Shown here: positions 17,336-20,580 of the stretch, in pieces | How positions within the stretch are numbered: the first letter of the stretch is position 1 | Layout of the letters: every line of letters begins with the position of its first letter | NCBI GenBank assembly: GCA_017479865.1 | Contig: JAFVBS010000012.1 | Location: forward strand, 960-64,959 | Reading direction: 5' to 3' | Length of the DNA stretch: 64,000 bases | From: Clostridia bacterium | Lineage (GTDB): Bacteria > Bacillota > Clostridia > TANB77 > CAG-508 | Translations under genes and position numbers: made by a program | The notes under the pieces: model-generated | Database searches by the model: none | Told to the model about the DNA's origin: nothing | What the model saw: only the letters and a program-made list of their open reading frames with translations

Positions 17336-17436
17336 CAAAGAAAATGATTAAACAAATGTTTTTAAAATACCTTGACTTATTACACCAATTTACGATATAA
17401 TTTTGAAGAAATAATTTGAAGAAAGAGAGATCTCAC

Positions 17437-19731
17437 ATGCAAGATTTAATAGAAGGATTAAATGATAAACAAAAAGAGGCAGTGTTGACAGCAGAAGGAC
17501 CATGCCTTGTCATTGCAGGAGCAGGAAGCGGCAAAACAAAAGTATTAACACACAAAATTGCTTATTTAATTTCACAAAAAAATGTGAAGCCATGGAATAT
17601 ATTAGCCATTACTTTTACGAATAAAGCAGCAAACGAAATGAAGCAAAGAGTTGAAAATTTAGTAGGAGACGTTGCACAAGAAATGTGGATGGGAACTTTC
17701 CACTCTGTTTGTGTGCGCATTTTAAGAAGATTTATTGACCGAATCGGTTTTGATAGTTCCTTTTTAATTTTTGATACCTCTGACCAAAAAACAATTGTCA
17801 AGGAATGTTTAAAAACACTCAAAATAGATGACAAAATGTTTACGGAAAGAAGCGTTTTGTCCGAAATTAGTAATGGCAAAAATGAAATGCTTACTCCTGA
17901 AGCTTACCAAACCAAATATGCAGGAGATTATCGTAGAAGCAAAATAGGACAAGTCTATGAACTTTACCAAAAAAGGCTTAGAGAAAACAATGCCATAGAC
18001 TTTGATGATATTATCAATTATACTATTGAAATTTTAAGCAACAATCCAGATGTTTTAGAATATTACACAGACAAATTCCGCTATGTCTTGGTAGATGAGT
18101 ACCAAGACACCAACAAAGCACAGTTTATGCTGGTTTCTATTTTAGCGTCACACTATGGAAACATTACAGTTGTAGGAGACAATGACCAAGGAATTTATAG
18201 CTTTCGCGGTGCTGATATTTCCAATATTTTGAATTTTGAAAAAGACTTTCCAGGAACGAAAATTATCAAACTAGAACAAAATTATCGTTGCACTGGCAAT
18301 ATTTTAAAAGCTGCCAATGCTGTCATTAAGCATAATGAGAATAAATACGAAAAAAAATTATGGACCGAAAACGAAGAAGGAAACCTACCTTGCCTATATC
18401 AAGCAGAAGACGAATATGATGAGGCAACTTATGTGGTACAACAAATTAACCATTTGAAAACAGAAGAATATTTAAAGCCATGCGATTTTGCTGTACTTTA
18501 CAGAATGAATGCGCAATCCAGAGCGATTGAGGATATTTTACGAAGAGAAGACATTCCGTACAAAGTAGTAGGAGGCGTTAAATTCTACGAGCGAAAAGAA
18601 ATTAAGGATGCCATTGCCTACCTAAGGCTCATTTACAATCCATCGGACAATATTTCTTTGAGGAGAATTATTAACGAACCAAAACGCGGCATTGGAAAAA
18701 CTAGCTTAGACCATGTGCAAGAAATTGCGGACCAGACTGGATCTTCCATGTATGAAATTATCAAAAACTGCGAACAATATGGCTTGACAAGAATCAAAGC
18801 AAATGCTGACGAGTTTACAAATTTGATTGAGGAATTAAGGTTAAAAATACAAGAACTTAGCATTTCTGAGCTTTTGAAAGAAGTACTCAAAAAATCAGGC
18901 TATACCAAAGCATTAGACCAAGAAAATACCATTGAAGCAGAAACAAGATTGCAAAACTTAGAAGAATTTTTAACAGTTGCCATCGAGTTTGAAGAAGAAT
19001 CAGCAGACAACAGCTTAGCGGAATTTTTGGAAAGTATTACATTATCTAGCGATGTAGACGAGATGCAAGACGAAGACAATAGCGTTACGTTGATGACACT
19101 TCATAGTGCCAAAGGACTAGAATATCCAGTAGTCTTTTTAGTGGGAATGGAAGAAGGAATTTTCCCAGGTTACCAATCCATCGGAGAGCCACAACAGCTT
19201 GAAGAAGAGAGACGTTTATTCTATGTAGGAATTACGAGAGCAAAACAGTTTTTATACCTCACCTGTGCAAAGCATAGAACCATTTTTGGCTCTACCAGCT
19301 ATAATGCCATTTCAAGATTTATCAAAGAAATTCCTGATAATTTACTAGACGGCGTTGTGGACAATGACCAAGAGGAAAAATTCAACGACACGAGTTATCA
19401 ATGGGAATATGGCAGAAGAGGTGCAGCAGGTAAAGTAAAAACATATACTCTTGACACAAAAGAAGTCAAACCAGTCAAAGAAACAAGTCCACTCCAATAT
19501 GGCAGAACGGCAGAAAGCTTTTTAAATTCCTTAGCACAAAAGAAAACACAAGGCGCACAAGATATTACACAATACAAAGAAGGACAGAGAATTTATCATA
19601 AAAAGTTTGGAGAAGGAATCATTCAAAAACTAGAACCGGAAGGAGATGACTACAAAGTAGACATCCTATTTGATAAAGTAGGACATAAGCGTTTAATGGC
19701 TAAATTTGCTGGGCTAGAAATTTTAGAATAA
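17437..19731 (+). CDS. pcrA: ATP-dependent DNA helicase PcrA (UvrD family)
   Basis: AGAGSGKTKVLTHKIAYL Walker A, VLVDEYQDTN, VGDNDQGIYSFRGA, QNYRC and TLHSAKGLEYPVVF helicase motifs. The likely start is the ATG at 17437. Confidence 0.93.
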   Translation: MQDLIEGLNDKQKEAVLTAEGPCLVIAGAGSGKTKVLTHKIAYLISQKNVKPWNILAITFTNKAANEMKQRVENLVGDVAQEMWMGTFHSVCVRILRRFIDRIGFDSSFLIFDTSDQKTIVKECLKTLKIDDKMFTERSVLSEISNGKNEMLTPEAYQTKYAGDYRRSKIGQVYELYQKRLRENNAIDFDDIINYTIEILSNNPDVLEYYTDKFRYVLVDEYQDTNKAQFMLVSILASHYGNITVVGDNDQGIYSFRGADISNILNFEKDFPGTKIIKLEQNYRCTGNILKAANAVIKHNENKYEKKLWTENEEGNLPCLYQAEDEYDEATYVVQQINHLKTEEYLKPCDFAVLYRMNAQSRAIEDILRREDIPYKVVGGVKFYERKEIKDAIAYLRLIYNPSDNISLRRIINEPKRGIGKTSLDHVQEIADQTGSSMYEIIKNCEQYGLTRIKANADEFTNLIEELRLKIQELSISELLKEVLKKSGYTKALDQENTIEAETRLQNLEEFLTVAIEFEEESADNSLAEFLESITLSSDVDEMQDEDNSVTLMTLHSAKGLEYPVVFLVGMEEGIFPGYQSIGEPQQLEEERRLFYVGITRAKQFLYLTCAKHRTIFGSTSYNAISRFIKEIPDNLLDGVVDNDQEEKFNDTSYQWEYGRRGAAGKVKTYTLDTKEVKPVKETSPLQYGRTAESFLNSLAQKKTQGAQDITQYKEGQRIYHKKFGEGIIQKLEPEGDDYKVDILFDKVGHKRLMAKFAGLEILE

Positions 19732-19820
19732 TATAAATATACTTGTAAAATGAAACTAAATAGTATATCATAAAAAAGCCTTTTAACAAGGTAAAACTTG
19801 GAGAAAGGAGGTACATACTT

Positions 19821-19910
19821 ATGAGTTCCTACGAGTTGATTTGGCGTTTAATTGTATTATTGCTTTTAAGTGATCATAGCAATGAATGTCAAGACAGAAA
19901 CAAAGAATAA
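19821..19910 (+). CDS. 29-aa hydrophobic peptide with charged tail, candidate type I toxin
   Basis: Strong RBS GAGAAAGGAGGT ends 8 nt before the ATG. Peptide MSSYELIWRLIVLLLLSDHSNECQDRNKE. Its start-codon region is complementary to the loop of the convergent small RNA. Confidence 0.5.
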   Translation: MSSYELIWRLIVLLLLSDHSNECQDRNKE

Positions 19911-19916
19911 TCTTTG

Positions 19917-19948
19917 AGAGCAAGTGTCCGCTTGCTCTTTCCTTTCAC
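19917..19948 (+). terminator. hairpin with TGTCCG loop after the peptide ORF
   Basis: AGAGCAAG-TGTCCG-CTTGCTCT followed by TTCCTTTC. Confidence 0.45.
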
Positions 19949-20020
19949 AAAAAAAGAGATTATGTGTCCGCATAATCTCGATACAAACTTAATATTGAGT
20001 TCCTATAAGTTTGTTTGACT
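19949..20020 (-). ncRNA. candidate antisense small RNA (about 70 nt), convergent with the peptide gene
   Basis: Minus-strand consensus promoter (TTGACA, 17 nt spacer, TATAAT) at 20027..20055. The 5' hairpin ACAAACTTA..TAAGTTTGT displays UAGGAACUCAAUAU in its loop. The terminator is GAGATTATG-CGGACA-CATAATCTC plus a run of 7 T. Confidence 0.55.
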
Positions 20021-20026
20021 ATCAAT

Positions 20027-20055
20027 ATTATAGCACTGAAATAATTATATGTCAA
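20027..20055 (-). promoter_or_regulatory. consensus sigma-A promoter on the minus strand
   Basis: The plus strand reads ATTATA (20027..20032) and TGTCAA (20050..20055), separated by exactly 17 nt. Confidence 0.65.
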
Positions 20056-20132
20056 ATATTTTTTTATTCGGTATAAAAAATCAAATTTTGTCCATAATAT
20101 CATTAGAAAATTGAGTGAAAGGAAGGATTACA

Positions 20133-20321
20133 ATGGCAAATTTAACACAAGTAGAATTGCAAAATTTAAGACATTTAATAGGAGCACATGAAACTTCATA
20201 CCAAAAATTAAATGCTTTTGCATCACAAGCCGTAGACCCACAAATTAAGCAAATGTTTACAAAATCTGCACAAGATGCTTTAAACACAAAACAAAAATTA
20301 TTATCATTCTTAAATAATTAA
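20133..20321 (+). CDS. small spore-coat-associated protein (partner of the CotF-like protein)
   Basis: MANLTQVELQNLRHLIGAHETSYQKL.., RBS AAAGGAAGG, immediately upstream of the coat-F-like gene. Confidence 0.55.
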   Translation: MANLTQVELQNLRHLIGAHETSYQKLNAFASQAVDPQIKQMFTKSAQDALNTKQKLLSFLNN

Positions 20322-20334
20322 AGGAGGTTTTTAC

Positions 20335-20580
20335 ATGGACGAAAAAACAATGGTGAACGACATATTAGGAAGTGTCAAAGCAGACCTTACTGCTTATCAA
20401 ACAGCAATTTCAGAAGCTGAAAATATGCAATTAAGACAAACTTTCCAACAAATTCGCAATAGTGATGAAAGTTTTCAATATGAATTATTCAAAGTAGCAG
20501 AAGCAAAAGGATATTATAAACCAGCACAAAAAGCTACTGTGACAGAGATACAAACACTTAAAACAGAATTAGAACAATAA
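20335..20580 (+). CDS. spore coat protein, CotF-like
   Basis: MVNDILGSVKADLTAYQTAISEAENMQLRQTFQQIRN.. resembles coat-F domain sequences as I recall them. Confidence 0.7.
   Translation: MDEKTMVNDILGSVKADLTAYQTAISEAENMQLRQTFQQIRNSDESFQYELFKVAEAKGYYKPAQKATVTEIQTLKTELEQ

Follow-up and report, generated by a model that had tools for sequence, protein, structure and literature searches.

Between pcrA and two small coat-F-like (cot) genes of an uncultured gut Clostridia bacterium, a short intergenic sequence carries a 29-codon open reading frame (ORF) for a hydrophobic peptide and, converging on it, a perfect consensus promoter for a putative small RNA (sRNA) with complementarity to the start of that ORF. 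The question raised by this locus is whether it represents a toxin-antitoxin (TA) system of type I, some other form of antisense control over a small protein gene, or a fortuitous cluster of terminators. The window in which it lies is a stretch of 64,000 nucleotides (nt; 64 kb) from positions 960 to 64,959 of contig JAFVBS010000012.1 (GenBank assembly GCA_017479865.1), to which all coordinates below refer unless a locus handle (L001 and so on) is given. A first-pass annotation of the window had proposed a type I TA-like locus with the layout of Fst/RNA II systems. Here we define the components of this module, document the co-variation of its two RNA pairing sites and the conservation of its peptide in related modules from gut metagenomes, and compare it with known systems. 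We conclude that the window locus is a member of a new type I TA-like family, an architectural variant of the par design of pAD1, and we place at roughly three in four the probability that it is a self-contained two-gene cassette of the type I TA kind.

Anatomy of the module and complementarity of its RNAs

The elements listed in the first-pass annotation were all recovered: on the plus strand a TTGTAA-17-TATCAT promoter, a strong ribosome-binding site, an ORF at 19821..19910 and a hairpin 3' of it; on the minus strand a perfect promoter, an RNA put at about 70 nt (72 nt as delineated here), a hairpin of 9 base pairs (bp) and a 9-bp terminator followed by seven U residues. Potential pairing between the two RNAs, proposed to involve 15 of 16 positions of mRNA segment 19822..19837, was likewise found and rests on a direct repeat, TGAGTTCCTA, at 19822 and 19996, but its extent had been under-described. 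When the full RNAs were cofolded, 26 intermolecular pairs joined mRNA 19810..19837 to sRNA 19980..20011, and the complex was favoured by -20 kcal/mol relative to the two RNAs folded separately. The second repeat copy (19980-20011, plus strand) is an imperfect copy of 19810-19837, and the predicted pairing begins in the last two G residues of the Shine-Dalgarno sequence (SD). By duplexfold the complementarity reaches 19809..19846, the extension to 19846 being weaker. The energy of the duplex, a calculation that the first-pass annotation had suggested as a check, was -36.2 kcal/mol for sRNA nt 1-41 with mRNA 19800..19850, against -12.5 +/- 3.0 kcal/mol for 1000 dinucleotide shuffles of the sRNA (z = -7.9; 0/1000 as strong). 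With both strands of the window tiled as potential targets, the peptide start region was the best target of the sRNA, barring the sRNA's own gene.

A second repeat links the two terminators. Both hairpins share the plus-strand loop TGTCCG (shared GTGTCCGC; 8 nt counting the closing pair), and because the loops are identical on one strand, those of the convergent RNAs are complementary (UGUCCG/CGGACA). The terminators are otherwise separate structures with different stems, 16 nt apart in the window and 17-27 nt apart in the other members measured; the peptide and sRNA genes do not overlap, and a shared bidirectional terminator of the Fst/RNA II type is absent. The hairpin of the peptide mRNA is followed by a U tract interrupted by C, and that of the sRNA, which is detected by a terminator scan, by an uninterrupted U7 (19949-19955). 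The 72-nt sRNA folds into two hairpins (-17.9 kcal/mol), the loop of the first holding CUCA, which fits the YUNR U-turn motif. Its promoter is the sole perfect TTGACA-17-TATAAT copy in the 64 kb; since 0.19 copies are expected and 17% of shuffled sequences contain one, this match is not significant alone.

On the mRNA side, transcription probably starts near 19778. The TATCAT of the window aligns with a TATAAT -10 box located 50-56 nt 5' of the start codon in 11 of 14 module types, and the corresponding family promoters also carry weak -35 boxes (TTGTAA or TTGTAT). Both the minimum free energy (MFE) fold and the cofold predict that CCUUUU (19779-19784) at the beginning of the 5' untranslated region (UTR) pairs with GAAAGG (19803-19808) of the SD region, this outer helix enclosing a small CAAG/CUUG hairpin (19787-19800). 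The predicted probability that the SD is paired is 0.90 in the window versus 0.67 with the upstream part shuffled. In the MFE fold the SD is paired in 14/14 types, its partner being the extreme 5' CCUUU or a pyrimidine stretch just upstream; in one type UCCCU pairs with a variant SD, AGGGA, and the order CCUUU...AAAGG...UCUUU...SD is repeated across the family. These predictions are no more than suggestive of a 5' UTR that holds the SD in an intramolecular helix.

Table 1. Features of the module and its flanking genes in the window
Feature	Position	Strand	Description
pcrA	17416..19731	+	gene 5' of the module
Peptide mRNA promoter	19743..19771	+	-35 TTGTAA 19743-19748, 17-nt spacer, -10 TATCAT 19766-19771; 9/12 match
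5' UTR	19778..19820	+	predicted fold enclosing the SD region
SD AAAGGAGGT (RNA AAAGGAGGU)	19804..19812	+	8 nt 5' of ATG
sRNA-binding site on mRNA (repeat copy 1)	19810..19837	+	predicted; last GG of SD, spacer, AUG, codons 2-6
Peptide gene	19821..19910	+	29 codons + TAA, MSSYELIWRLIVLLLLSDHSNECQDRNKE; presumed toxin
Peptide mRNA terminator hairpin	19916..19939	+	RNA GAGAGCAAG-UGUCCG-CUUGCUCUU (DNA GAGAGCAAG-TGTCCG-CTTGCTCT), loop 19925-19930
sRNA terminator	19956..19979	-	9 bp, GAGAUUAUG-CGGACA-CAUAAUCUC, loop 19965-19970; plus strand GAGATTATG-TGTCCG-CATAATCT
sRNA 5' hairpin and antisense segment	19980..20014	-	9-bp stem 19983-19991/20006-20014, 14-nt loop 19992-20005
sRNA gene	20020..19949	-	about 72 nt, AGUCAAACAAACUUAUAGGAACUCAAUAUUAAGUUUGUAUCGAGAUUAUGCGGACACAUAAUCUCUUUUUUU; presumed antitoxin
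sRNA promoter	20055..20027	-	TTGACA-17-TATAAT, 12/12, TG before -10
Two small coat-F-like (cot) genes	20134..20322, 20335..20580	+	3' of the module

Co-variation and conservation across the family

Relatives of the peptide were retrieved with the 29-residue query padded to 48 residues by in-frame upstream translation, and longer, mis-called ORFs were used to look up the encoding contigs. A protein identical to the window peptide is on record (P0001). The padded query yielded 21 proteins, all bearing SSYELIWRLIVLLLL followed by a variable polar or acidic tail, the longer entries among them being mis-called starts or read-throughs; a profile search of 1.84 billion representatives extended the set to 61 clusters at 50% identity, and a degenerate DNA coding pattern applied in one metagenome scan added 55 loci. 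Together, the contig look-ups and the metagenome scan provided 85 instances of the module in gut metagenome contigs, 60-65 of them unique.

The arrangement seen in the window recurs in 59 of 60 unique modules, each having the convergent TTGACA-17-TATAAT promoter (12/12 in 45 modules, 11/12 in 14), both sRNA hairpins and complementarity to the start region. The sRNA promoter lies 193-225 nt 3' of the start codon throughout the family. All 14 types encode an sRNA of 62-74 nt, which has one hairpin at its 5' end and a terminator built as GAGAUAUG-loop-CAUAUCUC-U7, and the 5' end of the sRNA (AGCUUAAGCAA / AGCUAGCAA), which lies outside the complementary segment, is conserved across types. On the mRNA side, a TATAAT -10 box accompanied by a weak -35 precedes a 5' UTR rich in pyrimidines, a strong SD and the ORF, and the mRNA has a terminator of its own; start codons are GTG in 33 instances, ATG in 27 and TTG in 25. 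The sRNA had no match in Rfam, at E-values up to 10 for the window and up to 1 for seven loci of other types.

The two pairing sites change together across types. The segment extending from just after the SD to codons 6-8 is imperfectly duplicated in each sRNA gene over 20-36 nt and varies in step with the mRNA: the repeat is TGAGTTCCTA in the window, TTGTCATCTTACGAA in L070 (TTG start), GTGTCTTCA.A.GAATT in L080 (GTG start) and ATGACATCTTATGA in L113. Codons 2-3 read AGT TCC in the window, TCA TCT in L070, TCT TCA in L080, ACA TCG in L092 and ACT TCA in L134, and the same bases occur each time in the adjacent sRNA gene, so that synonymous changes are mirrored. At the third position of codon 3 each of the four bases is represented, and the sRNA copy agrees with the mRNA there in 14 of 16 types. 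Averaged over 14 types, the duplex energy is -31.6 kcal/mol for cognate and -19.2 kcal/mol for non-cognate pairs. In a permutation test for which the sRNA copies were aligned to the family consensus and not to their own partners, matches at variable columns numbered 156, versus 119.7 +/- 6.7 with partners permuted among 17 clusters, and none of 20000 permutations reached the observed value.

The terminator loops behave in the same manner. There are about 11 loop classes, in each of which a core is common to both hairpins of one module while the stems differ: GTGTCCGC (window), CCACCA, (T)GGTCAAC, CTGCGA, CTGCCA, GCGTCCAC, GGGTAC, CGACGA and GCGGGAA, to which divergent loci add TGACTA (L145) and TTGCAAC (L147). 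For several types the terminator hairpins could not be picked automatically, owing to G-U pairs, to mismatches or to an additional hairpin that spans the stop codon, and these loops were read by eye, among them CTGCCA (L090 type); GGGTAC scored only under a less strict stem criterion. At least 6 nt are shared in 15 of the 16 distinct hairpin pairs scored, as against 3.6% of non-cognate pairs with different cores. In the exception, L081, a C of the mRNA loop is replaced by T, so that a G-U pair would still form. In L134 the loops are mismatched (CTGGGAA in the mRNA, CGGGTA on the sRNA side) and each agrees instead with a partner loop found in a different type (L109 and L093), as if this module were a recombinant. 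With 5' UTRs and sRNAs aligned by MAFFT, RNAalifold gave next to no signal, since the helices are shifted relative to one another by indels; co-variation was therefore assessed by anchored comparison and by permutation in place of alignment-based structure counts.

The first-pass annotation had reasoned that conserved hairpins around an unconserved ORF would reduce the region to a terminator cluster. The opposite was found, the ORF being the most conserved part of the module, with an N-terminus invariant or conservatively changed across the 61 clusters. The family motif is M-[ST]-S-[YF]-[ED]-L-I-W-[RKHQ]-L-I-[VIL]-L-L-L followed by a polar or acidic tail rich in D/E/N/Q/S/K. The profile search, which reveals the variation tolerated in the peptide, contained conservative changes only (Y/F, E/D, R/K/H/Q, V/I/L); the N-terminal 16 residues are almost invariant, with Glu/Asp5, Trp8 and Arg/Lys/His9 conserved and Trp8 invariant. 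In the window peptide the hydrophobic part, LIWRLIVLLLL, precedes the polar/acidic tail and is shorter than usual for type I toxins. Pro and Gly are absent from this part in every member, and the PXXXG(C) motif of Fst does not occur. The peptide had no match in Pfam (E-values up to 10), NCBIfam or PADLOC, and a literature search for the peptide string found no occurrence.

Several individual loci depart from the common form. In L080-L083, L127 and L135, which come from different samples, a run of seven A near codon 25 is shortened to six; the resulting frame continues across the terminator and into the sRNA gene and beyond, which yields ORFs of 80-104 residues, and these copies may be decaying toxin genes or may mark a slippage-prone tract. 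An extra sRNA gene lies about 130 nt 5' of the complete module in L147 (L147:150-300 and 350-640), no peptide gene for the extra copy being visible on the contig; its terminator loop is TTGCTACC, and it also contains a copy of ATGACATCATACGATTTAATTTGGCG. The loop of the complete module is TTGCAAC, and the tandem copies differ by one loop base. In L075 an element of the IS91 family (Y2 transposase; L075:1295-2944) stands directly 3' of the mRNA terminator.

Genomic setting and mobility

The host DNA is of low GC content (31%), and the nearest genomes are metagenome-assembled genomes of the Clostridium sp. CAG:508 kind, with 65-81% identity over the C-terminal half of PcrA. The module, a 310-base stretch (313 nt), sits inside the 403-nt pcrA-cot spacer. 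We compared synteny at 57 loci around pcrA of related species by blastn and tblastn, none of which carried the module. The 313-nt module was absent from the pcrA-cot spacer of all 44 related species that retain the pcrA-cot adjacency; these spacers range from about 60 nt upward, exceeding 2 kb in a few loci, those of about 60 nt lack any such structure, and the sole part conserved among relatives is the cot promoter region (window 20057-20134). Judged by this comparison, the module is an insertion at the window site. No second copy was found in the 64-kb window, in which exact 10-mers shared with the 330-nt query are frequent.

Elsewhere the module is flanked by more than 25 unrelated groups of gene neighbourhoods. 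Some neighbours are core genes (pcrA, an aspartyl-tRNA synthetase gene with a T-box leader, an M18 aminopeptidase gene, a radical SAM enzyme gene, dtd/Hsp33); others are of mobile or defence type (KAP NTPase, HEPN_Apea, HEPN_Swt1, DUF6076, DUF4238, ParE, IS110, IS91, and a phage-type integrase with a helix-turn-helix (HTH) protein). Given so many unrelated surroundings, we regard the module as an independent unit, moving or lost on its own. A divergent member (MTSYDLIWQLVELLLLKD..., loop class TGACTA) lies between the phage-type integrase and HTH regulator genes (L145:233-2185), a placement that suggests carriage on an integrative element. The T-box leader (L060:625-807, minus strand; 70.5 bits against a gathering score of 93) adjoins one module type, 5' of the aspartyl-tRNA synthetase gene. 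Among some 27 distinct neighbourhoods, about nine have an upstream gene of the same orientation whose end lies 72-103 nt 5' of the peptide start codon (the window, 19731-19743, and L080, L084, L091, L093, L097, L116, L129 and L140), and the module promoter begins within about 10-30 nt of a stop codon; in the window pcrA ends at 19731 and the -35 box begins at 19743. This spacing may reflect a preference for sites just after genes, or upstream read-through.

Some further features of the window were recorded. A motif 5' of the first coat-F-like gene, GTATAAAA-N14-CATAATA (20066-20100), abuts the sRNA promoter; it is kept in nearly all pcrA-cot spacers of the relatives (L001-L057) and looks like a promoter of a mother-cell sigma factor (E/K-type). 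Rfam entry n00280 ("C. difficile sRNA included into helicase gene") matches weakly within pcrA (19175-19271, plus strand; 36 bits against a gathering score of 65), most probably because the coding sequence is conserved. The region 30942-51626 (plus strand) holds four ORFs in succession, each of 1660-1730 residues. Public assemblies break at or near the locus: an identical contig (L058) begins inside the peptide ORF, at window position 19893, and those of the two closest relatives (L053 and L054, about 90% PcrA identity) end within pcrA. Three other identities considered for the module were set aside, namely a leader peptide or attenuator for the cot genes, excluded as the neighbourhood varies; a remnant of pcrA coding sequence, excluded as the short A-rich blastn matches are not significant; and a riboswitch or T-box at the module itself, excluded by the lack of any Rfam match.

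Interpretation and relation to known systems

From this arrangement we infer that both RNAs are transcribed, that they bind in a set order, that translation is thereby blocked, and that the peptide is toxic, presumably at the membrane; the sequence of events proposed is analogous to that established for pAD1 par (PMC7472228). Its weak -35 box notwithstanding (and in the window a weak -10, TATCAT), the peptide promoter would give an mRNA of about 170 nt for the 29-residue peptide, in whose short hydrophobic helix an acidic residue is conserved alongside a Trp and a basic residue, and which ends in a polar/acidic tail. From the facing consensus promoter, an sRNA of about 72 nt would be produced and kept in excess. 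Prior to its binding, the pyrimidine stretch of the 5' UTR would hold the SD in a helix. The terminator loops UGUCCG/CGGACA would make the first "kissing" contact, and the first 40 nt at the 5' end of the sRNA, some of which lie open in the 14-nt loop, would then pair with the mRNA from the last SD bases through the AUG to about codon 6. Ribosome binding would thus be blocked, and the peptide would not be made while the sRNA is present. A broader proposition, that these modules constitute an undescribed and widespread type I TA family of uncultured gut Clostridia, with non-overlapping genes and two co-evolving repeats, in which the 6-8-nt kissing loop is a variable address preventing cross-reaction between copies, is one that we put forward tentatively.

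A number of observations weigh against the toxin-antitoxin reading. The first-pass annotation had cautioned that the hydrophobic stretch is short for a membrane helix, and this caution stands: the stretch has only 11-13 residues and includes an Arg, and the best 19-residue Kyte-Doolittle window of the peptide scores 0.98, versus 2.24 for Fst. As the classical cut-off for such windows is 1.6, it is doubtful that the peptide spans the membrane as a canonical toxin would. Its almost unvarying N-terminus is suggestive of a specific partner and not of generic membrane damage, and the short stretch with its Glu5-Trp8-Arg9 pattern leaves room for a specifically targeted peptide or a non-toxic small protein; part of this invariance is due to members having been found through 5-residue words and a fixed DNA pattern. 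The predicted sequestration of the SD exceeds composition-matched shuffles only modestly over the family (mean pairing probability 0.82 versus 0.69). In L075, the exception among the 60 unique modules, the ORF is intact and the sRNA gene is not on the contig; it may lie beyond the insertion, or the antitoxin may have been lost, and an element inserted between two genes without overlap would not necessarily uncouple them in function. Viral contigs, sequenced phages and plasmid records contained no match to the module, in searches in which the BLAST low-complexity filter may have masked the Leu run.

The same features of the peptide can be accommodated by a non-toxic, antisense-RNA-regulated small protein gene, whose membrane-associated or regulatory product would have a specific partner and would be tuned in its synthesis by the sRNA. 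Such a gene would fit the 16 near-invariant N-terminal residues better than generic membrane damage does, as well as a hydrophobic stretch below the length of a classical membrane helix and the retention of the ORF in L075 with no visible sRNA gene. We nevertheless consider it unlikely: the module moves as a unit among unrelated sites, including those of integrase, insertion sequence and defence type, with no conserved partner gene adjacent to it, and expression of the peptide seems to be restrained in several ways at once (by weak start codons, a weak -35 box, a predicted pairing of the SD and an antisense RNA from a consensus promoter), a pattern encountered where a gene product is harmful. 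Frameshifted copies also exist, as is common for decaying toxin genes. It is far less probable that the sRNA is chiefly a trans-acting regulator of other genes, with the peptide mRNA as a sponge or secondary target. The conserved 5' end of the sRNA, being outside the complementary segment, could serve another function, but the peptide start region is the best target that the window offers if the sRNA's own gene is disregarded, the ORF is invariably accompanied by the sRNA gene, and the antisense segment changes along with synonymous sites of the ORF and is therefore not compatible with a conserved distant target. That ORF, promoter and complementarity might have arisen by chance in a mere cluster of terminators between pcrA and cot draws on the expectation of 0.19 perfect promoters per window and on the frequency of shared exact 10-mers; this explanation is refuted by the presence of the whole arrangement in 59/60 unique modules in unrelated neighbourhoods, by relatives' pcrA-cot spacers as short as about 60 nt that lack such structure, by a duplex z-score of -7.9 and by the co-variation of both pairing sites.

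With the toxin-antitoxin reading thus preferred, the closest counterpart is par/Fst-RNA II. The layout of this kind envisaged in the first-pass annotation is borne out by the convergence, the repeats and their co-variation, the terminator-loop repeat having escaped it. Common to both are convergent promoters with the antitoxin RNA gene 3' of the toxin gene; oppositely transcribed direct repeats that give complementarity over the translation start; complementary terminator stem-loops offering a possible second kissing contact, as we infer here; non-AUG start codons (GUG in fst); and a peptide of about 30 residues having a hydrophobic part with Trp and a charged C-terminal tail. The intramolecular structure that holds the SD in par may have a counterpart here. 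In pAD1 par, however, RNA I and RNA II share one bidirectional terminator and hence overlap (PMC7472228), whereas the RNAs of the present module end at individual terminators whose stems differ, only the loop and closing pair are duplicated, and there is no gene overlap. In place of two short repeats (DRa, DRb) there is a single imperfect one, 20-36 nt long, and the sRNA, at 62-74 nt, is longer than RNA II (about 40 nt; PMC7472228). Unlike Fst, in which a PXXXG motif is essential (PMC7472228), the present peptide is without that motif, has a much shorter hydrophobic stretch and has no Pfam or NCBIfam match. We find no support for placing the module in the Fst family proper, which it resembles in mechanism.

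Other type I systems share particular elements of the design. In SprA1/SprA1as of Staphylococcus aureus, which specifies PepA1, a 3'-side antisense RNA pairs with the toxin start region through a segment outside the overlap of the two RNAs, and the peptide has about 30 residues (PMC8594479). Their genes overlap at the 3' ends, however, which those of the present module do not, and the co-varying pair of terminator loops found here is not part of the description of that system (PMC8594479). PepA1 has been grouped with the Fst family (PMC8594479); no sequence similarity between it and the present peptide was detected through Pfam or NCBIfam. Non-overlapping genes with short complementary segments and an sRNA acting in trans characterize TisB/IstR-1, ShoB/OhsC, Zor/Orz and DinQ/AgrB (PMC8594479), but these belong to Gram-negative bacteria and have the sRNA 5' of the toxin; here the sRNA is 3' and convergent, the hosts are Clostridia, and a second contact is predicted at the terminator loops. 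The Gram-positive type I families have a 3' sRNA overlapping the mRNA, and a 3' convergent non-overlapping pair is not among the families in the T1TAdb overview (PMC8594479), T1TAdb itself and catalogues of small gut proteins not having been checked. Closest in host are CD2517.1-RCd8, CD0956.2-RCd10 and other pairs of Clostridioides difficile, with convergent genes, a hydrophobic N-terminal part and charged C-terminus, and a frequent location in mobile regions (PMC6563280). Those pairs have long overlaps, for which RNA degradation is proposed, and toxins of 34-59 residues with Lys-rich tails (PMC6563280). The present module differs in having no overlap, a short imperfect pairing at the ribosome-binding region, an acidic/polar tail and an unrelated peptide.

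To our knowledge, type I TA systems are almost unknown in the uncultured Clostridia that dominate gut metagenomes. The module described here adds to them a new peptide family, a new sRNA family and a variant of par with two terminators, duplicated loops and no overlap. Its conserved short hydrophobic peptide, with a Glu-Trp-Arg pattern, is unlike a standard membrane-spanning toxin. The mirrored synonymous changes, together with some 11 terminator loops changing in step, amount to unusually clean natural evidence for two-site RNA-RNA recognition, and the variants of loop and start region provide ready-made orthogonal pairs of sRNA and mRNA that could serve as translational switches in Gram-positive bacteria. 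If the kissing loop does act as an address, the recognition code of an RNA antitoxin would be readable directly from natural variation.

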